DNA of 64,000 nt from Patescibacteria group bacterium (GCA_016176685.1 JACOWS010000002.1:30608-94607), one strand, 5' to 3'. Shown: positions 6,409-64,000, counted from the stretch's first letter. Numbers and translations are program-made. The notes: generated by a model not told the origin, from the letters alone.

Positions 6409-7539
6409 ATGAAGATACTCTTTACCGGATCGGGTTCAGGAGGGCACTTTTACCCGATTATCGCGGTGGCCGAGTCCATGAGCGACGCGGTGCGCGAGAG
6501 AAAACTGCTTGAGCCCACATTGTACTACGCGGCACCAACTCCGTACGATCGCGAACTTCTTATAGCAAACGGTATTACCTTTGTACCGACCGCAGCAGGA
6601 AAAATGCGTCGCTATTTTTCTCTACTTAACATTGTCGACATCTTCAAAACAGGATGGGGAGTGATACGAGCTTTTGTGCGAGTGTTCTTTCTATACCCAG
6701 ACGCCGTCTTTGGCACCGGGGGCTATGCATCGTTTCCAACCATTTTAGCCGCGCGCTTTTTCCGCATACCGGTGGTGATATACGCAGCCGATGTGGTGCC
6801 CAGCCGAGTCAACCTCTGGGCGGGAAAGTTTGCGCGTAAGGTAGCCATAGCTTTTCCCGAGGCATCACGCTATTTTCCTGAAGATCGGGTCGCGCACACG
6901 GGCGCCCCGGTGCGCAAGGCGGCGCTCTTGCCCGCACGCGAGGGCATGCACGAATTCTTAAAGCTTGAACATACTGTACCGGTCCTGTTAATTCTTGGCG
7001 GCTCACAGGGAGCGCAGGTGATCAACGAGGGAGTGTTGGCGGCATTGCCACAGCTGGTGGAGAAATATCAAGTGGTGCACCAAACCGGCGAAAAAAATAT
7101 TGAGGAGATGGTCGGGCGCGCAAAAGTGGCTCTTGAAAATTCAAACCATGCGGAGCGCTATCGTCCTTTTAGCTACCTTAACGACCTGGCCTTGCGCATG
7201 GCTGCGGGCGCCGCGGCGATGGTTGTCTCACGTGCCGGATCGGGGAGCATTTTTGAAATTGCCGCGTGGGGGCTGCCTTCAATCCTAATTCCCATCCCTG
7301 AACCAACTTCCCACGACCAGGAAAAAAACGCATTTGCTTACGCTCGTTCGGGTGCCGCGGTAGTTATTGAGCAAAACAACCTGACCCCCGGGCTCCTCAT
7401 TTCCGAAATCAACCGCATTTTAGAACAGCCGGAACTCTCTCGCGGCATGTCCGAAAAAGCGCGCGCCTTTGCCCGAGTTGACGCTTCCAAAACAATAGCA
7501 AACGCCCTATTAGATATAGCAATCTCCCACGAGTCATGA
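6409..7539 (+). CDS. murG: Undecaprenyl-PP-MurNAc-pentapeptide-UDPGlcNAc GlcNAc transferase MurG
   Basis: 'MKILFTGSGSGGHFYPIIAV' N-terminal G-loop; GT28 architecture. Confidence 0.9.
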   Translation: MKILFTGSGSGGHFYPIIAVAESMSDAVRERKLLEPTLYYAAPTPYDRELLIANGITFVPTAAGKMRRYFSLLNIVDIFKTGWGVIRAFVRVFFLYPDAVFGTGGYASFPTILAARFFRIPVVIYAADVVPSRVNLWAGKFARKVAIAFPEASRYFPEDRVAHTGAPVRKAALLPAREGMHEFLKLEHTVPVLLILGGSQGAQVINEGVLAALPQLVEKYQVVHQTGEKNIEEMVGRAKVALENSNHAERYRPFSYLNDLALRMAAGAAAMVVSRAGSGSIFEIAAWGLPSILIPIPEPTSHDQEKNAFAYARSGAAVVIEQNNLTPGLLISEINRILEQPELSRGMSEKARAFARVDASKTIANALLDIAISHES

Positions 7540-7569
7540 GCCTATAATCACACAAATATTTAAAACTCT

Positions 7570-8067
7570 ATGACTAACTATGAAGCACGCACATCCGACA
7601 ATAAGTGTGTATTTTGCGAAATCGCCAATGGCCACCTGCCGGCAGCAATTTTCTGGGAGGACAGAGAGTTTTTAGCATTCTTGTCTATTGATCCCAATAC
7701 TGAGGGTTTTTCTTGTGTTATCCCAAAACAACATTATGGGAGCGATGTACTTAAAATGCCCGATGAAATACTTATACGTTTTGTCCTGGTTGCTAAAAAA
7801 ATCAGTGAAATTCTTGAGAATTACTACACCGACGTTGGCAGAGTTGGACTTGTAATGGAAGGGACCGGGATAGATCATGCTCATATCAAACTCATACCTT
7901 TACATGATACTGAGCATATGAAGCGTGGAGAATGGAAACAATACCTTTCAAAACAAAACCATTGGTTTGACACATATGAGGGGTGGGTTTCTTCTGCTGG
8001 TGGACCATTAATTGACCGAGAGGAATTAAAAGTATTGGCGGAAAAGATACGGAAATCTCTAAAATAG
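7570..8067 (+). CDS. HIT family hydrolase
   Basis: Histidine triad 'DHAHIKLIP' and 'CVFCEI' zinc-binding N-terminus. Confidence 0.8.
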   Translation: MTNYEARTSDNKCVFCEIANGHLPAAIFWEDREFLAFLSIDPNTEGFSCVIPKQHYGSDVLKMPDEILIRFVLVAKKISEILENYYTDVGRVGLVMEGTGIDHAHIKLIPLHDTEHMKRGEWKQYLSKQNHWFDTYEGWVSSAGGPLIDREELKVLAEKIRKSLK

Positions 8068-8139
8068 GGGGTAGGGCGAGAATGGCCTATTCTCTAGCTT
8101 GACACACTGCGATGATAGGAGTAGTACTGTATCCACGCT

Positions 8140-8472
8140 ATGGGTAGCAAACACGCCGCCAGCAAGATATATTCTAATATTCTGAAGAATAACAGAATAA
8201 AGTCTGCTAGGACGCCAAAGCAATTAGAACGACACTTTAAGGGAGTCGCCAATCATCGTCGGATCGAGATTTTACTGCTTGTGGCAAAACGAGAGGGAAT
8301 CACTACGGAAGCGATTTCAACTACGCTTGACTGCAATTTTAAAACAATTTCTTCTCACACTCAACGCTTGATACAAGCTGGTTTACTAGAGAAAAAGTAC
8401 CTTGCACAAAGCGTACTCCATACGCTTTCGCCTCATGGAAAAATGGTGCACACCTTTATTCAATCATTCTGA
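8140..8472 (+). CDS. ArsR/SmtB family transcriptional regulator
   Basis: 'LERHFKGVANHRRIEILLLV...ISSHTQRLIQAGLL' matches the ArsR HTH layout. Confidence 0.7.
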   Translation: MGSKHAASKIYSNILKNNRIKSARTPKQLERHFKGVANHRRIEILLLVAKREGITTEAISTTLDCNFKTISSHTQRLIQAGLLEKKYLAQSVLHTLSPHGKMVHTFIQSF

Positions 8473-8492
8473 TATTCTGAAGAATATCAGAA
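8467..8492. promoter_or_regulatory. Perfect 11-4-11 palindrome TTCTGATATTC-TGAA-GAATATCAGAA (candidate operator) overlapping the ArsR stop and upstream of gltX; an imperfect copy lies at 8172-8197
   Basis: Read directly from the sequence. The second copy has two mismatches and lies within codons 11-19 of the ArsR ORF; a half-site is near 8523. Confidence 0.5.
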
Positions 8493-8541
8493 TACAAGCA
8501 GCGAAGAGGTCAAGGGTCGGAAATTCTGATATAGTTTTTAC

Positions 8542-17222: not shown

Positions 17223-17297
17223 AAAACCCGCTGCAATTTTAAAGGGTAAGACTTGGCCTAGCGGCCCGGAGCGCCCTTTAAAATTGCAGCGGGTTTT
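17223..17297 (+). repeat. Family 1 conserved-loop hairpin element, copy 2
   Basis: 24-bp perfect stem aaaacccgctgcaattttaaaggg / its reverse complement around TAAGACTTGGCCTAGCGGCCCGGAGCGC. It lies between tRNA-Pro (+) and the exonuclease gene (-). Confidence 0.85.
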
Positions 17298-29821: not shown

Positions 29822-29894
29822 GCTGACAAGGCAAAAAAAGAGAGTAAGACTTGGCCTAGCGGCCCGGAGCGCTCTCTTTTTTTGCCTTGTCAGC
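29822..29894 (+). repeat. Family 1 conserved-loop hairpin element, copy 4; supplies the last codons and TAG stop of the FAD oxidase gene
   Basis: 22-bp perfect stem gctgacaaggcaaaaaaagaga / its reverse complement around TAAGACTTGGCCTAGCGGCCCGGAGCGC. The minus-strand reading of the arm plus core gives ...ADKAKKESAPGR*. Confidence 0.85.
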
Positions 29895-32258: not shown

Positions 32259-32921
32259 CTACCCCTTTTTGTCGAGAACAAACCGCCACGGCTTGTTTAC
32301 ATACTCACCCGCGGAGTCAATGCCGATGCGCGGGGTGCATCGCACTTGACCACGCCCTACCTCTACTCCTCTGTCCTCAACCCACAGGCCGGTCTTTTTG
32401 CCGAGCGGTTTGTTGTTTAGCTTTTTGTCTACCTGCAAAAACTTGGTGAGTTTTGCCGGACCGTCAAGGCGCACGCCAACAGGGCGAAAAAAGAGGGCGC
32501 TCCGGGCCGCTAGGCCAAGTCCTACCCTCTTTTTTCGCCCTGTTGGCGGCAGCTCACCGTGTGACAAGATTCGACTTTGCCATTGCGGTTCAAGGCCGCG
32601 TATCAGAACAGCCGCAGGATATCTTTCTTTCCCGCACACCAGGTTAAGCATCCAGTGCATGCCGTAGGTAAAGTACACGTACACCACTCCGGGGCGGCCA
32701 AACATCGGCGTGTTGCGAGCGGTTTGCCCGCGGTGGGCATGGCTGGCTTTGTCTCTTGGGCCGTCGTACGCTTCGGTCTCAACAATCATAAGTGCTACTT
32801 CACTGCCCCGTACCCTGCGCACTAAAAATTTTCCCACAAGTTCCCGCGCCACGGTAAGTGTTGGCCGGTCAAAAAACGCCGCTTGTAGAACTTTGCGCAT
32901 AGGTTGCATGATACGCAACAT
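32259..32921 (-). CDS. mpg: DNA-3-methyladenine glycosylase (Mpg/AAG family) carrying an in-frame hairpin-element insertion
   Basis: 'FLVRRVRGSEVALMIVETEAYDGPRDKASHAHRGQTARNTPMFGRPGVVYVYFTYGMHWMLNLV...IRGLEP...DGPAKL'. The 220-aa length equals a typical roughly 196-aa Mpg plus a 24-aa insert. Confidence 0.85.
   Translation of the reverse strand: MLRIMQPMRKVLQAAFFDRPTLTVARELVGKFLVRRVRGSEVALMIVETEAYDGPRDKASHAHRGQTARNTPMFGRPGVVYVYFTYGMHWMLNLVCGKERYPAAVLIRGLEPQWQSRILSHGELPPTGRKKRVGLGLAARSALFFRPVGVRLDGPAKLTKFLQVDKKLNNKPLGKKTGLWVEDRGVEVGRGQVRCTPRIGIDSAGEYVNKPWRFVLDKKG
32475..32545 (-). repeat. Family 1 conserved-loop hairpin element, copy 5, embedded in-frame in mpg (translated as PPTGRKKRVGLGLAARSALFFRPVG)
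   Basis: 22-bp perfect arms ccaacagggcgaaaaaagaggg / reverse complement around GTAGGACTTGGCCTAGCGGCCCGGAGCGC on the gene strand. The reading frame is preserved. Confidence 0.85.
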
Positions 32922-48934: not shown

Positions 48935-49012
48935 CAGCCAGCGGAGCAAAAAAAGAGGGCACTCCGGGCCGCTAGGCCAAGTCTAACCCTCTTTTTTTGC
49001 TCCGCTGGCTTG
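48935..49012 (-). repeat. Family 1 conserved-loop hairpin element, copy 6 (core variant TTAGACTTGGCCTAGCGGCCCGGAGTGC); supplies the holB-like C-terminus and TAG stop
   Basis: 25-bp arms cagccagcggagcaaaaaaagaggg / reverse complement. On the gene strand the arm plus core reads ...ASGAKKEG-TAG. Confidence 0.85.
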
Positions 49013-49699
49013 CAGTTGTGGCAAGGTAGCGGCCAAGTGCTCCAGGAGCATTTTGTAGGAGGGGGCGCGGTCGTTTGCGTAGCCGCGGATTTTTGCAATG
49101 TCTTCAAGCCCTTCTCGCACCCTACTATTCCCTTTTGCCAGGTGCGGATACATTTCCACCTCGAGCGCGTCTAAAAATGCGCGCACCGACTCGCGTAGGC
49201 CTTCGTCGTCCCCGACCGAACGACCGGAGTCGTCCGGTCGGGCGGGTTTGAGCATTTTGGCTATTTCCGCACTGCGCGCCGTTTGCGAGCTAGCAAGAAA
49301 TTTCCTGGCAAGCGCATGCTCAACAATGATGGATTTACGAAGTCCATCATTGGGGTATGGAGTCATTCTCGAGCGCAGGGTCGGTATGACCGTGCCATGT
49401 GGAGTTAACAAAACAAAGATGGTCCCCTGCTGCGGCTCTTCAAACAATTTTAAAAGCGCCTGCTGGGCTTCTATGGTCATGGTGGAAACGCCCACTACAA
49501 AAAGCGCGCGGCCCGTGGCCGACCTAAGCCCTGCCGCTTGCCGCAAGGCGCGCGCCTCGCCTATACCAAAAGTCTCTTCACTAACCACCCTAACGTCCGG
49601 GTCACCCTGTTTTGTAAAAGTAAAACGTGTACGCGCATCCTCTACGAGCCCTACAAGGTTTGAAAGAGGCCCTTCAAAAAGGTAGGCGTGGTGCTGCAT
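48983..49699 (-). CDS. holB: DNA polymerase III delta-prime subunit-like (HolB-like clamp-loader subunit)
   Basis: 'ALLKLFEEPQQGTIFVLLTPHGTVIPTLRSR' clamp-loader box; start chosen at MQHHAYLFEGP. Confidence 0.65.
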   Translation of the reverse strand: MQHHAYLFEGPLSNLVGLVEDARTRFTFTKQGDPDVRVVSEETFGIGEARALRQAAGLRSATGRALFVVGVSTMTIEAQQALLKLFEEPQQGTIFVLLTPHGTVIPTLRSRMTPYPNDGLRKSIIVEHALARKFLASSQTARSAEIAKMLKPARPDDSGRSVGDDEGLRESVRAFLDALEVEMYPHLAKGNSRVREGLEDIAKIRGYANDRAPSYKMLLEHLAATLPQLQASGAKKEG

Positions 49700-57444: not shown

Positions 57445-57747
57445 CTAGGCCTTGAGAGCCGTGACGTTGTAGCCGAAGCTCTCGGCCAGAGCCACCGCCA
57501 GCATCTCGGTGTCGCCCAGCGGCATCGACAGCGTGTGGCCGTCGGCGCCCTGGATCACGGCCGTGCCACCGACCTTGGCGAAGCGCCCGCTGTTGATCGT
57601 CTTGCCGTCGCGGGTGGTGCCGTGGGCATCCTGCCAGCCGCGGATCGAATCGATCGGGATGAGACCGGTGTTGTAAGCGTCGATGTTGACGGGGACGGTC
57701 TTGGCGCGGTGGCGAGTGCTCGGCGAGAAGGAACGATTGCTGTTCAT
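57445..57747 (-). CDS. Hypothetical protein (100 aa) in a 65% GC patch immediately upstream of tRNA-Asn
   Basis: GGAGG Shine-Dalgarno 7 nt upstream of the ATG (MNSNRSF...). Confidence 0.5.
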   Translation of the reverse strand: MNSNRSFSPSTRHRAKTVPVNIDAYNTGLIPIDSIRGWQDAHGTTRDGKTINSGRFAKVGGTAVIQGADGHTLSMPLGDTEMLAVALAESFGYNVTALKA

Positions 57748-57965
57748 AAATGAACCTCCGTTTGTGTGTATTCGCTCCCCTGCCCTGCAAAAAGGGCTAG
57801 GGACAGCGAAATCGGCCACCATTGGCCGACCAGAGGAGCTTAGCATAGGCCAATTTTGGTGTCAAGCTCCGCGGGTAGGACTCGACCTAGAGCTTTGTGA
57901 CTCCGGCCACATTCTTGATATGACAAAATCCATAAAATTAGGTATAGTTTTTTTGTTCGACATAT

Positions 57966-58250
57966 TCCGCGGTAGCTCAATGGTAGAGCAGCTCCCTGTC
58001 AGCAGGCAGCCTCCCACAGGAATGTGGGTTGCAAACGAGGTGAATTCGGGGAAATCCTAAGCTTTGTCGAAGGACAATCCCGAGCCAAGCTCCAGATTTT
58101 GGAGAAGGTGTAGAGACTATCCCGCAAGGGAGTACTCTCAAAAAGAGGAAGCCCCTCGCATCCAGAACGGATGATGATATAGTCCACGCCCGCAGTAATG
58201 TGGGGAAACGTGTAAGGAGTTGGTTGTAGGTTCGAGTCCTACCCGCGGAG
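57966..58250 (+). tRNA. tRNA-Asn (GUU) interrupted by a 213-nt group I intron in the anticodon loop (mature length 72 nt)
   Basis: Exons UCCGCGGUAGCUCAAUGGUAGAGCAGCUCCCUGU / UAAGGAGUUGGUUGUAGGUUCGAGUCCUACCCGCGGAG fold as tRNA-Asn with loop CUGUUAA and G73. The 5' splice site is after U, the intron ends with G, and a GCAGG internal guide-like segment follows the splice site. Confidence 0.7.
58000..58212 (+). ncRNA. Group I self-splicing intron (subgroup IC3-like) within tRNA-Asn
   Basis: Contains blocks nearly identical to the Azoarcus/cyanobacterial tRNA introns: AATTCGGGGAAATCCTAAGC, GAGCCAAGC and GAAGGTGTAGAGACTA (J8/7-P7). No ORF. Confidence 0.7.
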
Positions 58251-58482
58251 CCCAGTCCCCCGACCCCCGTCTGGGTAACCTCTCGGTTTCCCAACATCTC
58301 GCTACGCTCAATCCTTCCTCCACGAGGGACTAGGCGTCTTTTGCTCTGCAAAAGCCGAGGGTAGGACGAGAACGAGGGGTGGGTCGGAGGGGAAACTATA
58401 GTGTCCCCTCCGTGGAGGAAATTATTCAAAACCGTGGGTTTTGAAAGCGCAGTCTCGTTATAGCGGGACGAGCAGTGAGTAC

Positions 58483-58501
58483 TCCTACCCGCGGAGCCCA
58501 G
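58483..58501 (+). repeat. 19-bp exact direct repeat of the tRNA-Asn 3' end (TCCTACCCGCGGAGCCCAG; first copy 58237-58255); att-like
   Basis: Read directly from the sequence. This is the classical signature of site-specific integration at a tRNA 3' end. Confidence 0.6.
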
Positions 58502-58537
58502 ATAACCCTTTGCGACGGCAAAGGGTTATCTGGGCTC
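58494..58537 (+). repeat. 20-bp perfect hairpin with GACG loop (gagcccagataaccctttgc-gacg-gcaaagggttatctgggctc); left arm overlaps the att-like repeat
   Basis: Read directly from the sequence. Confidence 0.6.
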
Positions 58538-58780
58538 ATCTATACGAATTGGCTCGTACCTATTTTACCCTAAACCCCTAGTCGCGCGCTCCGCGCGCGT
58601 GGTGGCTTTGTACCGCATCGTACGTCCCGATTTCCGTGCTGACTCTCTCGGGCGCGAGTACGCCGCGCCCTCGACCCCGCCCCGCCGCTTTCCATTCTTT
58701 CTTATTTTCGCGGGGGGGGGAATGCAAAACTGAATGGCAGCGGGGACGGGGACCCGAAAAATCCCCGATTTTTGGCGTAG

Positions 58781-58809
58781 TTGACAGAAATTATTAGGAA
58801 TCGTATAAT
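58781..58809 (+). promoter_or_regulatory. Perfect consensus sigma70 promoter (TTGACA-17-TATAAT) with an about 150-nt leader preceding the GC-rich ORF
   Basis: TTGACA at 58781-58786, TATAAT at 58804-58809. The leader contains an RNA-only 13-bp stem (two G-U pairs) and three GAACACGT motifs at 58920-58965. Confidence 0.6.
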
Positions 58810-58966
58810 ACATTGAGTTCTTTGAGAAAATCCCTTATTTGCCGTGGCAGAAAGCCCTTGAAAACAATCGAGTTTTTTCTGCTATGGCAAACCGAGGTCA
58901 GCTCGGAGCCCAATGGCCCGCAACACGTTCCGAGAGGAACACGTTGCATAACGGAGTGAACACGTC

Positions 58967-59617
58967 ATGACTGACAGGTTCATCATGTCTAGCCGCCAAG
59001 CGGCAGAACTCGACCATGCGCTTGAGCGCAACGGTTGGACGTCTGCGGACGTCAAAACGGCGACGAAGGGCAATACCCTTGCTCAATTCCGCAAGGTGTT
59101 GCTCGGGACTGCTACGGTCGTCGACAATCCTGTGACGAAAAAGAAGCAGTCGAAGCTTCTCGTCTCCGACGGCCACTATGCCGTCGTCGAAGTCGGCGAG
59201 CGGCACGATCCGGGCAGTTTGTGGCAGACTCGCCCGGGTCTCTACGTGTACGACGACTTTCGGAATCGAATCGTCGCGGCCGCCAAGCCGACCGAGACGG
59301 GAGCGAAGTTCAAGAAACTCCCGCGTTTCAAGCTCGGCCGCAATGCGACTGGTGAGGAACTGAAAGGTGCACGTCCGAATGGGATTTGGACGGCGACCGA
59401 TTTCTGTCCGTGGCTTGCCGCGAAGCTTGCGAAGCAAGCAGGTGGCAAGGACGGGGAATTCCTCAACAACGGCTGGGCCAACCTCTTCTTGGTCGAAGGG
59501 GTAAACGGCGAGGTCTTCGTCGTCGTCGTGGGCTGGTTCGGCGGCGAGTGGATCGTCGACGCGTGGCGGCTCGACGACGACTGGCCCGGTGGCAGCCAGT
59601 TCGGCTCCCGCAACTGA
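58967..59617 (+). CDS. Hypothetical protein (216 aa), about 63% GC, foreign-looking
   Basis: Long ORF with a strong promoter; no recognisable family. Confidence 0.5.
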   Translation: MTDRFIMSSRQAAELDHALERNGWTSADVKTATKGNTLAQFRKVLLGTATVVDNPVTKKKQSKLLVSDGHYAVVEVGERHDPGSLWQTRPGLYVYDDFRNRIVAAAKPTETGAKFKKLPRFKLGRNATGEELKGARPNGIWTATDFCPWLAAKLAKQAGGKDGEFLNNGWANLFLVEGVNGEVFVVVVGWFGGEWIVDAWRLDDDWPGGSQFGSRN

Positions 59618-60026
59618 CCGATTGCAACTTTGTGCGCTCGCCGGTGGCGGGCGCATTGACCCCTTGGATACTTTGGCCCTGTGCCGGAGTCCAAGGGGTT
59701 TTCGTTTGATATACTGAAATTGAAATTTCTGGCGGCGTTCCGATAACAGGGACAATAACGGGATAACGGGGACAGGCACAGTTAAATAAGCAAGAGTGTG
59801 GTATAGTTAAAAGGATTATACATTAAGCGATTTTTTATGATGGGTTATAGCTGGTCAATGATGGGAGGCGCGGGTATTTTTGGTTCTCTTATTGCAATCG
59901 TAATATTCGTGAACCTCGTTCTCGTCGGCATCTGGCTCTGGCAGCAGATCTCAAAGAAGTGACTACTTTAAACGAAACAGAGCGGCAAAAGCCGCTCTGT
60001 TTCGTTTTATGGATGGCCAAAGAATA

Positions 60027-60602
60027 TCATTCCCCGTACCAACTTGTGAGCCACCCGCGCATCATGTCGATTTCTCGCGACTGCGATGTGATGATGTTGT
60101 CAGAAAGCTCCTTCATTTCTGAACGCTGTGTAGAAGCTTGGAGCATTTGTGCCATCATGATGGCCATCTCGTGATGCGGGATCATCTGCTCGATGAACTC
60201 ACGATCAAACTCTGAAGTAGAAACACCTGCGAGTACTGCCGTGTCGCCACTCATACCGTCCATGTGCATCATACCCATACCGCCTTCTGGTGGCGCAGAG
60301 CCGAACCATGATTGATACCACGAACGCATGTCTCGATTTTCGCTCTCCTGAGCTTCAATAATGCCATTTGCCAGCGAGAGTATCTCGGGACGCTTTGAGC
60401 GTTCCAGGGCGACCTTAGCCATTTTTATCGCTCCCTCATGGTGTGGAATCATCTGGACAATAAAGTGCTGATCGATCGGATTATTGCCCCAGACCAGGTA
60501 TCCACCAAGAAGACCGAGTACAAGAGCTACGACACCTACTGCGATACTACTCGTATTCATGAGCGGAATATACCATATTTTGGAAATAGGGTCAGACCCC
60601 AT
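60027..60602 (-). CDS. DUF305 domain protein (tandem 'MIPHHEGAI'/'MIPHHEMAI' motifs; metal-resistance-associated family)
   Basis: Two DUF305 HH motifs and one N-terminal TM helix; alternative start at 60560. Confidence 0.7.
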   Translation of the reverse strand: MGSDPISKIWYIPLMNTSSIAVGVVALVLGLLGGYLVWGNNPIDQHFIVQMIPHHEGAIKMAKVALERSKRPEILSLANGIIEAQESENRDMRSWYQSWFGSAPPEGGMGMMHMDGMSGDTAVLAGVSTSEFDREFIEQMIPHHEMAIMMAQMLQASTQRSEMKELSDNIITSQSREIDMMRGWLTSWYGE

Positions 60603-60665
60603 CCCCTAGGGGTACTCTGTCAAAACAGTCGGGGAACCTTTAGTCTTTAAGTACTACCCTATGGA

Positions 60666-61202
60666 TTGATGGGAGGAGGGTCTGGTATTATTACAACAAT
60701 GACAAACCTATTTATACTCGCCGGTATACTACTATTTATCGCCATTGCGGTGGCGTTATTTTCAGGAAAGTTCGAAAATATAAACGGGGAAAAGGCGCAG
60801 TATCAATACAGAAGGAAAAACTTCTTTCTTACTCGAGCAGAGCATGAATGCTATGACGCTTTCGTCGAGGCGGTTGGTGCGGAGTATCGCATTTTCGCAC
60901 AGGTGCATCTACCTACTCTAGTTGACCACACAATTCGAGGGCAGGATTGGCGTGCCGCTCTGGCACACATAAACCGGAAGTCTGTTGATTTCGTGCTTTG
61001 TGACAAAGCGTATCTCTCACCAAAGCTAGCTATCGAGCTGGATGATAAATCACACGAGCGTCCGGATCGGCAGGAACGTGATCGTGAAGTGGAGCGTATC
61101 CTGCGTGAAGCCGGTGTGCCACTCTTGAGACTGGAAAATCACGGCAATTTTAATCCAAGCGAATTAGCTCAACAAATCAAAGAAACCCTTAACCCCAAAT
61201 AA
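60666..61202 (+). CDS. DUF2726 (NERD/restriction-endonuclease-like) domain membrane-anchored protein
   Basis: N-terminal TM helix; 'RKSVDFVLCDKAYLSPKLAIELDDKSHERPDRQERDREVERILREAGVPLLRL' DUF2726 core. Confidence 0.65.
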   Translation: MMGGGSGIITTMTNLFILAGILLFIAIAVALFSGKFENINGEKAQYQYRRKNFFLTRAEHECYDAFVEAVGAEYRIFAQVHLPTLVDHTIRGQDWRAALAHINRKSVDFVLCDKAYLSPKLAIELDDKSHERPDRQERDREVERILREAGVPLLRLENHGNFNPSELAQQIKETLNPK

Positions 61203-61248
61203 CATCCCTATAAACTGGAGTATGTAAGGATATTGAAAAAACAAATAT

Positions 61249-61749
61249 ATGCGTATAAATAATTTTTTCAAATCAGTAATTGCCATTGGCGTTTCGCTGG
61301 GAGCAGGAGTGATCGGCTCATTCTTTACCACACCGGCAGTTCAATCCAGTTGGTATCTGGAACTTATTAAACCGGCTCTCAATCCTCCGACGTGGATGTT
61401 CGGTCCGGTCTGGACGACACTATTTGCGCTTATGGGCATTTCTCTTTTTCTTGTCTGGAAACAACATCCTTACATACTTGAGAATGTAAGGATGTTACGA
61501 GTGTGGAGATGGGCGATCGCGCTATTTTTTATTCAGCTGGTACTCAACACCCTTTGGTCGATTATCTTTTTTGGTCTGCATAGCCCCGGCGGTGCGCTTG
61601 TTGAGATCGTGTTCCTTTGGCTTGCTATCCTCGCCACAATCATTGCATTTTATAAAATCTCCCGGCCGGCCGCGTGGCTCTTGGTGCCGTATATCCTTTG
61701 GGTCAGCTTTGCCGCTTATTTAAACTATGCCATTTGGTCGCTGAATTAA
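61249..61749 (+). CDS. tspO: TspO/MBR family tryptophan-rich sensory protein with an in-frame palindromic insertion
   Basis: 'FGPVWTTLFALMGIS', 'WSIIFFGL' and 'YILWVSFAAYLNYAIWSLN'. The loop 'KQHPYILENVRMLR' is encoded by the hairpin element. Confidence 0.8.
   Translation: MRINNFFKSVIAIGVSLGAGVIGSFFTTPAVQSSWYLELIKPALNPPTWMFGPVWTTLFALMGISLFLVWKQHPYILENVRMLRVWRWAIALFFIQLVLNTLWSIIFFGLHSPGGALVEIVFLWLAILATIIAFYKISRPAAWLLVPYILWVSFAAYLNYAIWSLN
61459..61496 (+). repeat. Family 3 hairpin element, copy 1 (AAACAACATCCTTACA-T-ACTTGAGAA-TGTAAGGATGTT), inside tspO
   Basis: 13-bp stem aacatccttacat/aatgtaaggatgtt. The second copy at 62618-62655 is identical except for one nucleotide. Confidence 0.8.
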
Positions 61750-62149
61750 ATCCAATTAAGCAAACAGACTTCGGTATAATTTCTTAACATCGTTCGAGTT
61801 AATCAAATCGTTCCAAAGGTTCAAATTTGGTCAAACCGGTGGGTAGTGGTGGCAACTGGTGATAGTGTGATGTACCCTAGGCACAAATCTCTCCACAGGG
61901 GCAAATAGCTGGCAAATCGGGGTGCATTTACCAGTAATTCACTATCTTAAACGGCGAGATATTGCCGGGAATCTGCCAAATGGCGGTTCGGAATGCATGA
62001 AGCGCGCGGAGCTCGTAAAAGTCGTTATTTTAATAGGGCCATTTTGAGTACCCGCGGATAAGACTCGAACTCTTGACTTGTTTATATATCTAATATATAT
62101 TACCTACAGATAATCTTTTCAGTCAATTCATTTCATAGAGGAGCTAGCA

Positions 62150-62428
62150 ATGCCGACCACAGACGATATCAAAAAATTCTGCGAAAGCATCGACTTCGAT
62201 TTATTGAAAAAGGCGAGGCGGAAAGAGTCTCTGACACCCGGCGAGCGCATCAAGGTACTTGCCGCACTCGCGTCGCCGACTCCATATATTAACGGTGGCA
62301 AGGTAGATGTGATGCGCAACCCCATCTTCGATCTTTCTTCAGTCGAAATTGCAAATATGTCTCGCGATAGAGGTTTCGCTGCAGCAGGCTACACGCCCGC
62401 AGCAATTGACTACATCCTACATCACTGA
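62150..62428 (+). CDS. Hypothetical protein (92 aa)
   Basis: Intact ORF followed by a hairpin plus T-tract (62450-62500). Confidence 0.4.
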   Translation: MPTTDDIKKFCESIDFDLLKKARRKESLTPGERIKVLAALASPTPYINGGKVDVMRNPIFDLSSVEIANMSRDRGFAAAGYTPAAIDYILHH

Positions 62429-62617
62429 AATGCCCGCCCAACAAACCGCACCGTCCACAACGCGAACCCGTTGGAGGACGGTTTCGCTTTTTACGCCAGC
62501 AAACAGGTTCGAACTTCGTAGGGCAGGCAGGGCAACTTTATTCAATCATGCGAGTTGTAAAGGAATATTGACTAAAAATCCAATTATAAACGATGGATAG
62601 AAAGGCATCGACCCCAT

Positions 62618-62655
62618 AAACAACATCCTTACAAACTTGAGAATGTAAGGATGTT
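62618..62655 (+). repeat. Family 3 hairpin element, copy 2 (intergenic, between convergent genes)
   Basis: caacatccttaca-aacttgagaa-tgtaaggatgttg. Confidence 0.8.
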
Positions 62656-62690
62656 GTGTGTTTGGAAATTGGCGATTGTTTCCCTGGAAT

Positions 62691-63407
62691 TTAGCGAGTA
62701 CTGACTAGCTTTTGGTACAGGCCGCCAAAGTATGAGGATTTTTGCCATCTGCGGCCGGCCATTTGTGCCGGTATAACATCTGCCAGTTCCCTGCCCCATA
62801 GGTCGACCGCGTAGGGCTCGAGTCTGGCGAGAAAAAGGTAAATTAAAAAACGCACCGGGTGCCATTTGGCCGGCTGTGCGTAGTCGACTATCACCAACTT
62901 GCCTCCTGGTTTTAGCACGCGCAGAGCCTCGCTCACGGATTTTTCTCTATATGCCTGCGGCTCTTCGTGCAGCAAAAAAAATAGCAGTACCCTGTCGTAG
63001 CTCTGGTCGGGCAGAGCGAGGGCCGTAGCGTCCATAAGGAGCGTCTGCGCATGCATCTCGGGCGTCATTTTCCTGCGCAGATTGTCTAGCTGGACCTCTA
63101 GTATGTCTATAACATCGAGTGAACCGCCGTTTTTTGCGGCGCGTGCCGCCAGGCGGGGCGAGAGGTCTCCATAACAGCACGACATTTGCAGGGTGCGCCC
63201 GGCCAGATCGTCGCCAAACTCGTCGAGCACGGCATTGCGTAGTGTTACGTAGTTGCCAAAAAGGATGAAGTTGATAAGCCACTGGCGCTCAAAAAAACGT
63301 ACTGCAGAGGGGCGCACATACGCCCACCAGTAAGTCTCCTCAAGATAGTCTGGTATTGGTGGGGCTATCTTGTGGGACATAGTTATAAAAAAAATACCCA
63401 GATACAC
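62691..63407 (-). CDS. Class I SAM-dependent methyltransferase-like protein (Methyltransf_11/RquA-like)
   Basis: 'PDYLEETYWWAYVRPSAVRFFERQWLINFILFGNY...LDVIDILE...LKPGGKLVIVDY'. Confidence 0.6.
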   Translation of the reverse strand: MYLGIFFITMSHKIAPPIPDYLEETYWWAYVRPSAVRFFERQWLINFILFGNYVTLRNAVLDEFGDDLAGRTLQMSCCYGDLSPRLAARAAKNGGSLDVIDILEVQLDNLRRKMTPEMHAQTLLMDATALALPDQSYDRVLLFFLLHEEPQAYREKSVSEALRVLKPGGKLVIVDYAQPAKWHPVRFLIYLFLARLEPYAVDLWGRELADVIPAQMAGRRWQKSSYFGGLYQKLVSTR

Positions 63408-63439
63408 TCAACAATAGCACGGTGGCCAGACCGAGTGGA

Positions 63440-63731
63440 TTTTTTTATCAACATCAGGCATACTAGCGGCAGACAGACCCGAGGGAGTGTTTGGCATAGT
63501 AAGCCGCGCAAGGGGTCACCCATCCTTTTGTGCGGAGATGAGGTGCCAAGCACACTTCTTTTAGACGACCGCGGTGGAAGTGATCTCCCCACCGCTCTTC
63601 GTTTAGACAGAAGAACCCCCGGTTGCCGCTCGGGAGCGCGCGAGCTCTGGTGCCTTATACGCTGGAGGCACACCAAAGCTATCGCCCCCCGAGCGGCACT
63701 TTTACACCACCCCTAGCCGGGTGGTGTTTTT
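63440..63731 (+). ncRNA. Candidate structured RNA (about 290 nt, GC-rich) ending in a strong intrinsic terminator (63704-63731); class unknown
   Basis: A 340-bp gap without a credible ORF. Long-range complementarity (gccgctcggg...cccgagcggc) and nested hairpins. Terminator acaccaccc-ctagcc-gggtggtgt plus T5 on the plus strand. It could alternatively be the 5' UTR of the minus-strand methyltransferase. Confidence 0.3.
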
Positions 63732-63747
63732 ACTCACCGACCAAAAG

Positions 63748-63903
63748 CTACTTTTTGTTGCCCAAAATCTTAAACATCTTGGTGCTACAGGTTGCACAGG
63801 TGCCAGACATAGCGCGACGGCCCCCCTTCATCTCAACTTCTTTTGGGTCAACCATTTCCTTCTTCTCGCGGCACTTAACACAATATGCAATTTCCTTTTC
63901 CAT
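63748..63903 (-). CDS. Small zinc-ribbon protein (51 aa; two CxxC pairs)
   Basis: 'MEKEIAYCVKCREKKEMVDPKEVEMKGGRRAMSGTCATCSTKMFKILGNKK'; below the ORF-track length cutoff. Confidence 0.5.
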   Translation of the reverse strand: MEKEIAYCVKCREKKEMVDPKEVEMKGGRRAMSGTCATCSTKMFKILGNKK

Positions 63904-64000
63904 ATCGTTACGTTAGTAGTACGTACAAATTAATAAAATAAGCCTCCTCTTCTATTCTATGGCTAAAATAGGCATATAAGAAGAGTGGTGGGGACAACCC

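Follow-up and report, generated by a model that had tools for sequence, protein, structure and literature searches.

In the 64,000-nt stretch of a Patescibacteria group bacterium analyzed here (GCA_016176685.1, JACOWS010000002.1:30608-94607; called the window), positions 57867-62619 around a tRNA-Asn gene probably represent a recombination hotspot of a Kaiserbacteria-like genome, at which a site-specific recombinase whose gene lies elsewhere or has been lost uses the tRNA end as attachment (att) core, moves cassettes in and out between direct copies of this end and inverts DNA between inverted copies. This 4.75-kb stretch has been repeatedly rebuilt by recombination; it is an ordinary kind of tRNA-linked variable locus and ends inside the window. 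Alignments with a sister lineage showed that the flanks are conserved, that the interior is replaced and that the tRNA module is inverted between the lineages, one breakpoint (J1) coinciding precisely with the outer end of a tRNA-end copy in inverted orientation. The 3' ends of tRNA genes, including asn tRNA genes (e.g. the Yersinia high-pathogenicity island), are classic integrase targets.

The window contains two exact copies of TCCTACCCGCGGAGCCCAG, at 58237-58255 and 58483-58501, which lie 246 nt apart, with 0 copies expected from shuffles. This 19-mer comprises the 3'-terminal 14 nt of the tRNA (T-loop end, 3' strands of T stem and acceptor stem, discriminator G) plus a CCCAG trailer, and thus starts with the last T-loop base of tRNA-Asn. 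The second copy, denoted (c), overlaps by 8 nt with a perfect 20-bp hairpin (arms 58494-58513 and 58518-58537, 4-nt loop). Both the repeat and the hairpin had been noticed in the original prediction and were confirmed. A tandem duplication of the tRNA was considered and rejected, the second copy resembling the tRNA over the 19 nt only.

As sister lineage we used the ENA and JGI contigs L025-L037, in which the counterpart of the 100-aa protein encoded next to the locus is 80% identical and genes share about 85% nucleotide identity. The hairpin and its lead-in GGAGCCCAG are conserved at 100% in six of these contigs (L026-L029, L031, L035) and at 97% in L030; in the case of L026 the full identity extends over 35 nt (58493-58527 = L026 2743-2777). 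In L026 the tRNA continues as ...GGAGCC/AGGCAGG, followed by a 1.93-kb restriction-modification (R-M) cassette, by GTACTTGAGCGGGAGCCCAG, which is a decayed distal repeat copy, and by the same hairpin. This cassette was seen in several independent contigs (L026 and L028; part of it in L027). Since the relative's distal copy has decayed and its hairpin is perfect, the hairpin is a constrained, native part of the locus. The GGAGCCCAG lead-in of the second copy together with the hairpin hence is the ancestral native tRNA-Asn trailer (35 nt), and the DNA between tRNA and trailer is an insertion slot, the content of which depends on the lineage.

In the window the downstream copy is joined to the ancestral hairpin, and therefore a 246-bp unit, consisting of 227 bp and one repeat copy, was inserted at the tRNA end. 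Because the relative's distal copy has decayed, the direct repeat of the window looks younger than that of the relative. The geometry of the slot is that of classic tRNA 3'-end integration, in which the tRNA end is renewed by the incoming DNA and the former end is displaced to the far side, and in the window only an integrase-less remnant is left in it. The direct repeat is best read as an integration scar; the att-like nature originally proposed for it is borne out by the behavior of an att duplication at the tRNA-Asn 3' end, with the distal copy carrying the ancestral trailer and hairpin.

Further copies of the tRNA end are inverted. A 19-nt probe derived from the T arm and acceptor found 4 sites in the window versus 0.02 expected, namely the tRNA itself and the three inverted fragments (a), (b) and (d) (Table 1). 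A further, partial sequence (e) is formed by the last 8 nt of the hairpin, CTGGGCTC, which equal inverted GAGCCCAG. All tRNA-derived copies are confined to 4.2 kb, and none occurs elsewhere in the 64 kb. Fragment (a) and the tRNA form a perfect 20-bp inverted repeat (57866-57885 and 58232-58251, 100% complementary) which brackets the promoter and the tRNA gene; a more decayed copy of (a) is found at the same place in L026. An inverted tRNA end results when (e) and (d) are joined with a 1-nt overlap, and likewise when (a) and (e) are joined with a 4-nt GAGC overlap; TGAGTAC precedes both (c) and (d) on the plus strand. That (d) and (e) are parts of one inverted att split by a 3.5-kb insertion is suggestive only, and the same applies to the (a) and (e) combination and the shared TGAGTAC as traces of history.

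The gene order of the relative was rebuilt from L036/L037 and L026, with L026 and L037 overlapping by 203 nt at 100%. It reads DUF5679, RquA, palindrome, DUF1360, a 71-aa open reading frame (ORF), (a)-like copy, intronless tRNA-Asn and the slot with DUF7768, N6_N4 methyltransferase and MutH, then decayed (c) with hairpin, a Germane-domain gene, the leader, a 95-aa gene, an 852-aa gene, HPF and fmt. Read on the same strand, the order in the window begins with DUF5679, RquA and palindrome. Beyond breakpoint J3 follow the 92-aa ORF, (d), TspO, DUF2726, DUF305 and a 216-aa gene, beyond J2 the hairpin, (c), the 227 bp, the tRNA and (a), and beyond J1 the leader, the 100-aa gene, a 613-aa gene, HPF and fmt. 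Thus both flanks are kept, only 57867-62619 differs, and the tRNA module has opposite orientations relative to the conserved flanks. The alignments place 57761-57866 at L026 3715-3608 in reverse orientation, 57867-57999 plus 58213-58252 at L026 642-814 in forward orientation (94.7% and 100%), and 62620-63980 on L036 (85%). In the more distant relative L021 the Germane-side spacer likewise lies directly upstream of the leader. The 23-kb relative scaffold L025 starts with aggcc/TTGACACC (1-13), within 5 nt of the position equivalent to J1; this is a possible sign of population heterogeneity at that site, although scaffold ends also arise in other ways.

It is highly improbable that these differences reflect a window contig that is chimeric or mis-oriented at the short repeats around the tRNA. 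Logan contigs from this population break at 57988, 58687, 61130 and 62630, and none of the independent contigs retrieved covers J2 or J3, which would be in favor of an artefact. J1 nevertheless recurs in two independent Logan assemblies (100% identity), both with the same orientation of the tRNA module, and 58687-61130 and 62630-64000 were likewise reproduced at 100%. Moreover, the break at 57988 falls in a tRNA exon common to other organisms, and repeats of 19-25 nt are shorter than usual assembler k-mer sizes.

Under the hotspot reading, recombination between direct copies, catalyzed by a recombinase that is encoded elsewhere in the genome or was lost with its element and takes the tRNA end as att core, would insert and remove cassettes and leave a remnant without integrase. 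The tRNA module would be flipped when one inverted copy recombines with another or with a GGAG..CC pseudo-site at the leader promoter, and because the 20-bp inverted repeat is perfect the tRNA would stay whole in both orientations. A single inversion would account for J1 and for the orientation of the tRNA. It would run from the outer end of (a) (...CCGCGGAGC) to the relative-type site ...CTTGGAGGCC/TTGACACC, where GGAG..CC is shared with the tRNA end. The 4.1-kb accessory block would stem from a separate replacement between the hairpin and the RquA-side palindrome, this second event swapping the Germane/DUF1360 side for the block.

Several observations weigh against this mechanism. Integrase or recombinase families were matched by none of the 50 window ORFs, in agreement with the original prediction, and among these ORFs there is also no invertase near the inverted repeat. 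The 2.4 kb past the window (contig L001) contain PAP2, GT2 glycosyltransferase and PaaX_M-like genes and no integrase, and the R-M cassette of the relative contains no recombinase. A circular or viral form with the att sequence or the arms of the 227 bp was not found; viral contigs searched with the 19-mer, a P'-arm 21-mer and a P-arm/core 20-mer gave 0 matches each. J2 and J3 are documented by the window assembly alone, the accessory block ends without direct att repeats, and the source population shows only one orientation of the tRNA module. The order of events is not uniquely reconstructable, at least two events being needed, and at a length of 19-25 nt the repeats may also suffice for rare rearrangements driven by RecA or microhomology.

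The last point leads to an origin without any dedicated recombinase, which is possible but rather unlikely: the 246-bp insertion, the inversion and the block replacement would result from RecA or microhomology combined with DNA uptake from related strains, and the tRNA-end copies would be passive relics of older duplications. The clustering of five tRNA-end-derived sequences, an exact direct repeat that starts in the T loop like integrase-made att sites, unrelated cassettes in the same slot of two lineages, and the coincidence of J1 with the end of a tRNA-derived copy to the nucleotide argue against such passive processes. The lack of a recombinase in the window and of direct att repeats flanking the block agrees with them, as do J1, which shares only GGAG..C microhomology with the relative, and J3, which lies at a palindrome and not at a tRNA-derived site.

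We consider it doubtful that the module 57866-58537 (inverted tRNA-end copy, promoter, tRNA, att, slot, att, hairpin and inverted partial att) is itself the recombination unit, with a recombinase acting in trans which would exchange promoter-less cassettes in an integron-like manner and flip or relocate the tRNA. The palindromic CCGCGG in the acceptor sequence would possibly help such an enzyme. The two module ends share GCTC (57866-57869 and 58534-58537), which fits insertion of the module as a unit but could also be chance.

The 227-bp insert folds better than shuffled sequence (z = -3.7). This property, the lack of a terminator between tRNA and hairpin and the 100% conservation of the hairpin between lineages would be consistent with a role on the RNA level, in which the tRNA, a 227-nt structured trailer and the tRNA-like end with its hairpin form one transcript and copy (c) directs the processing or termination of a small RNA made from the trailer. 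Such a role seems improbable to us, since the relative carries protein-coding genes in place of the 227 nt, the tRNA-derived part of its distal copy has decayed, and both the inverted copies and the inversion would be left unexplained. There was also no Rfam family match: at a permissive threshold nothing credible was obtained for the insert or for the leader of the 100-aa gene. No U tract follows the 20-bp hairpin on its 3' side, and the hairpin was not listed by the terminator scan.

The insert contains the only window copy of the 11-mer TAGGACGAGAA (0.01 expected), which equals the trailer 3' of the L015 tRNA-Asn. This piece may derive from the tRNA-Asn trailer of another host and have been brought in with the element. 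Among GTDB species representatives, which leave out the source genome, the 19-mer terminates intact tRNA-Asn genes in Paceibacterota, Kaiserbacteria, Saccharibacteria and Acidimicrobiia. A metagenome scan with a 21-mer spanning repeat and hairpin returned only L029, a contig already known. Fragments of tRNA-Asn 3' parts ending with the 19-mer, without a tRNA gene, were observed in unrelated genomes, namely in L012 (2254-2304; metagenome-assembled genome of Acidobacteriota) and L016 (about 128-159). From the anticodon loop on, the L012 fragment agrees with the tRNA-Asn of Acidimicrobiia, and the examined parts of L012, L016 and L018 contained no integrase beside the tRNA-Asn fragments.

Downstream of the hairpin, the relative carries DUF1360, the 71-aa ORF and the Germane gene at the positions corresponding to 58528-62619. 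Absence from the relative together with a guanine-plus-cytosine (GC) content that is low in part thus defines this block as accessory. GC content is 43-50% at 60-62.5 kb versus a window mean of 53.8 +/- 3.4% (1-kb windows), and that of 58256-59700 is typical of the window. Of the mosaic composition originally described, the low-GC part was confirmed; the 63% GC segment turned out to be a local peak (62.7% at 59200-59599), with 58528-59700 averaging 58%, which is inside the normal range. The predicted gene content was found as well, i.e. DUF305 (CopM-like), DUF2726, TspO and a zinc ribbon (DUF5679), although the zinc-ribbon gene is part of the conserved flank and not cargo. The S-adenosylmethionine methyltransferase is present too and is more precisely an RquA equivalog, but it also belongs to the flank. 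Perfect-consensus promoters had been announced in the plural; one site matches at 12/12 and the other promoter-like sites reach 9-10 of 12.

One large tRNA-Asn-targeted island, extending from the repeat past 64 kb with its integrase and distal att there, was the original interpretation. The att-like repeat at the tRNA end, the low-GC accessory genes downstream and the fact that the window stops before all downstream DNA is visible made it plausible, and the cargo genes up to 62619 are indeed absent from the relative. We now regard it as very improbable, because from 62620 on the window is again homologous and collinear with the sister lineage (RquA, DUF5679), so that the variable block ends inside the window. 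In addition, the block is not enclosed by the direct-repeat pair and lacks a direct att copy at its distal boundary (62619), and a third direct 19-mer copy does not occur in the window, where all extra copies are inverted. There is also no integrase in the window or in the 2.4 kb past it, and an island with its recombinase past 64 kb is therefore unlikely. The alternative wording of tandem remnants comes closer to the truth; the spirit of the island idea is right, its extent and the place expected for the recombinase are wrong. The three inverted tRNA-end copies, the inversion of the tRNA module and an intron in the tRNA gene are features beyond that prediction.

By analogy, the locus works like a tRNA-targeted integration site with an integrase-less, att-flanked remnant. 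In common with genomic islands of the tyrosine-integrase type (P4-like elements in asn tRNA genes, the Yersinia high-pathogenicity island) are the insertion at the tRNA 3' end, an insert flanked by a direct repeat of this end (19/19 for 58256-58482), the displacement of the original end and trailer to the far side, and a content that varies between close relatives within conserved flanks. In contrast to these islands, which encode their own integrase, our locus is without one, its repeat-bounded insert comprises only 227 non-coding bp, the larger accessory block is located outside the repeats, the additional copies lie in inverted orientation, and the tRNA gene has itself been turned around. 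Cis-mobilisable elements (CIMEs) of streptococci, which are att-flanked and integrase-less, resemble both the 227-bp insert and the relative's R-M cassette in having att-like repeats and no recombination or transfer genes. They differ in that no cognate integrase-bearing element is known for the site studied here, trans mobilization being hypothetical, and in the host, here a genome-reduced member of the Patescibacteria. The perfect 20-bp inverted repeat around promoter and tRNA gene, and a unit in opposite orientations relative to conserved flanks in two sister lineages, are reminiscent of site-specific inversion systems such as invertase switches and shufflons. Unlike in these systems, there is no adjacent invertase, a single orientation was observed within a population, and flipping would bring no obvious change of expression.

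The small genomes of Patescibacteria (candidate phyla radiation, CPR) are generally thought to carry few mobile elements. The locus shows that a tRNA 3' end is still a site of gene turnover in a small CPR genome, sister lineages carrying at the same place an R-M cassette, a short remnant, or a block of metal, TspO and nuclease-like genes. The annotation can be corrected with an island end at 62619 and the RquA-like and DUF5679 genes as shared flank, and with a tRNA-Asn gene that is intron-split and hence overlooked by standard tRNA finders. Concrete junction sequences are also available for raw-read tests of ongoing excision or inversion. The predicted empty-site junction is ...CCGCGGAGCCCAG/ATAACCCTTTGC directly after the tRNA, the predicted circle junction of the 227-bp unit is GAGTAC/TCCTACCCGCGGAGCCCAG/TCCCCCGACC, and a flipped tRNA module would give GGTGTCAA-GCTCCGCGGGTAGGACTCGAACCTACAACC with the partner GCTCTAGGTCGAGTCCTACCCGCGGAGCCCAGTCCCCC.

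ARAGORN made no tRNA call at the tRNA-Asn locus because a group I intron splits the gene. Once the exons were joined (57966-57999 to 58213 onward), a tRNA-Asn(GTT) was called, confirming the identity originally assigned; the whole intron-split gene is listed as 57966-58253, its 3' exon beginning with TAAGGAG. The Rfam model RF00028 matched 57986-58205 over its full length with 56.7 bits versus a gathering score of 50. Splice-site hallmarks are present, with U as last base of the 5' exon (T57999) and G as last base of the intron (G58212), which is inserted between anticodon positions 35 and 36. The spliced sequence is identical to the intronless gene of L026, where both exons are found at 100%. 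L009 and L013, two loci of Saccharibacteria, have an intron at the same site; its core is conserved and its peripheral parts differ. The conserved core resembles the Azoarcus type. As in the anticodon-loop group I introns of other bacterial tRNAs (cyanobacterial tRNA-Leu(UAA) and tRNA-fMet, Azoarcus tRNA-Ile), a small ORF-less intron is patchily distributed among close relatives; unlike in these, the host is tRNA-Asn(GUU) and the insertion lies between positions 35 and 36. With respect to the att repeat the intron is incidental. An earlier paper (PMC8172020) already mentions group I introns in CPR tRNAs.

Table 1. Coordinates of the features described (positions in the window unless a contig is named)
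Feature	Position	Strand	Remarks
100-aa gene coding sequence	57445-57747	-	diverged from relatives
Left flank: promoter (TTGACA-17-TAAGCT) and leader of 100-aa gene	57761-57866	-	96% identical to L021, L026; homology ends at 57866
J1	57866/57867		leader meets outer end of copy (a)
Fragment (a), inverted tRNA 3'-end copy	57866-57889	-	TAGG-TCGAGTCCTACCCGCGGAGC, 24/25; outer end is breakpoint J1
Promoter-like site for tRNA	57920-57948	+	ATGACA-17-TATAGT, 10/12; sequence conserved in L026
tRNA-Asn(GUU) 5' exon	57966-57999	+	ends ...CTGT (anticodon position 35); identical to intronless L026 tRNA
Group I intron	58000-58212	+	213 nt, without ORF; RF00028
tRNA-Asn 3' exon and CCCAG trailer	58213-58255	+	contains repeat copy 1 (attL-like), 58237-58255
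Non-coding insert between direct repeats	58256-58482		227 bp, several hairpins, no Rfam match
Fragment (b), degenerate inverted tRNA 3'-end copy	58355-58373	-	16/19; inside 227-bp insert; plus-strand 11-mer TAGGACGAGAA
Repeat copy 2 (c), attR-like	58483-58501	+	displaced ancestral tRNA end
J2	58527/58528		inside hairpin 3' arm
Accessory block	58528-62619		4.1 kb, 49.4% GC; 59701-62619 46.0%; absent from sister lineage
Consensus promoter	58781-58809	+	TTGACA-17-TATAAT, 12/12; upstream of 216-aa gene
216-aa uncharacterised protein	58967-59617	+	592 representative clusters, E <= 0.001
DUF305 / CopM-family protein	60027-60602	-	within accessory block
DUF2726 protein, restriction-endonuclease-like fold	60669-61202	+	start codon according to Logan contig L004
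TspO/MBR protein	61249-61749	+	contains palindrome copy 61462-61497
Fragment (d), inverted tRNA 3'-end copy	62052-62070	-	GTTCGAGTCTTATCCGCGG, 17/19
92-aa hypothetical ORF	62150-62428	+	promoter-like site 62073-62101
J3	62619/62620		outer end of ~36-nt palindrome adjoining RquA
Palindrome, ~36 nt (AACATCCTTACA-N10-TGTAAGGATGTT)	62621-62657		outer end is J3
RquA-equivalog methyltransferase, conserved right flank	62691-63380	-	NF038261 286 bits versus cutoff 175
DUF5679 zinc-ribbon protein, conserved right flank	63748-63903	-	conserved in sister lineage
Relative's slot cassette	L026 817-2742		DUF7768 / N6_N4 DNA methyltransferase / MutH-like nuclease

Within the accessory block, the 216-aa protein is a member of a sizeable uncharacterised family, with 592 representative clusters matching it, and had no match in Pfam, PHROG or NCBIfam and no viral relatives. 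Its AlphaFold2 model reached a predicted local distance difference test (pLDDT) score of 93 and gave no significant fold match in PDB or BFVD. For the DUF2726 protein one distant viral match was obtained.

The ~36-nt palindrome is present in two further window copies, at 61200-61235 (5' of TspO) and 61462-61497 (inside the intact TspO ORF). The latter shares 59 nt at 88% identity with the copy next to RquA, which also exists in the relative (L036 1331-1365). In L036 the palindrome and the DUF1360 gene are flanked by a ~45-nt direct repeat (about 1253-1300 and 1950-1994) derived from the RquA 3' end. The geometry matches that at the tRNA, in that a 3' end has been replaced, although the gene concerned encodes a protein.

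The RquA-like gene has about 85% nucleotide identity and the same neighbors in L036 and L037. Since CPR bacteria are generally thought to be without quinone biosynthesis, an equivalog of this rhodoquinone biosynthesis protein is unexpected in this genome. Homologues occur in Kaiserbacteria (CP066682.1), and our literature search found no paper tying RquA to CPR bacteria. Contig L022 (CP066682.1) has only EPSP synthase and RquA in common with the window, and L024, compared by gene content, looked unrelated to it.

On the left side, the promoter and ~90-nt leader of the 100-aa gene (57748-57866, minus strand) are 96% identical across three lineages, with a strongly diverged coding sequence. The 100-aa protein itself is identical to one encoded in an NCBI metagenome-assembled genome of a Patescibacteria group bacterium (locus tag HYS79_01340). 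The consensus fold consists of two hairpins and a closing stem which pairs the 5' end with the Shine-Dalgarno region, including one compensatory pair, and the leader is a candidate regulatory leader.

The strongest GC dip of the window is located at 7000-8500 (40.9% at 7501-8500) and covers the end of a murG-like gene, a HIT-domain ORF (7570-8067) and a 110-aa ORF (8140-8472). Finally, a dispersed repeat of ~47 nt was found at 1979-2019, 17243-17277, 29835-29881, 32488-32534 and 48937-49014 of the window as well as in L021 (8101-8147); identities between window and L021 are mostly 90-96%, the copy at 48937-49014 having 79% over 78 nt.

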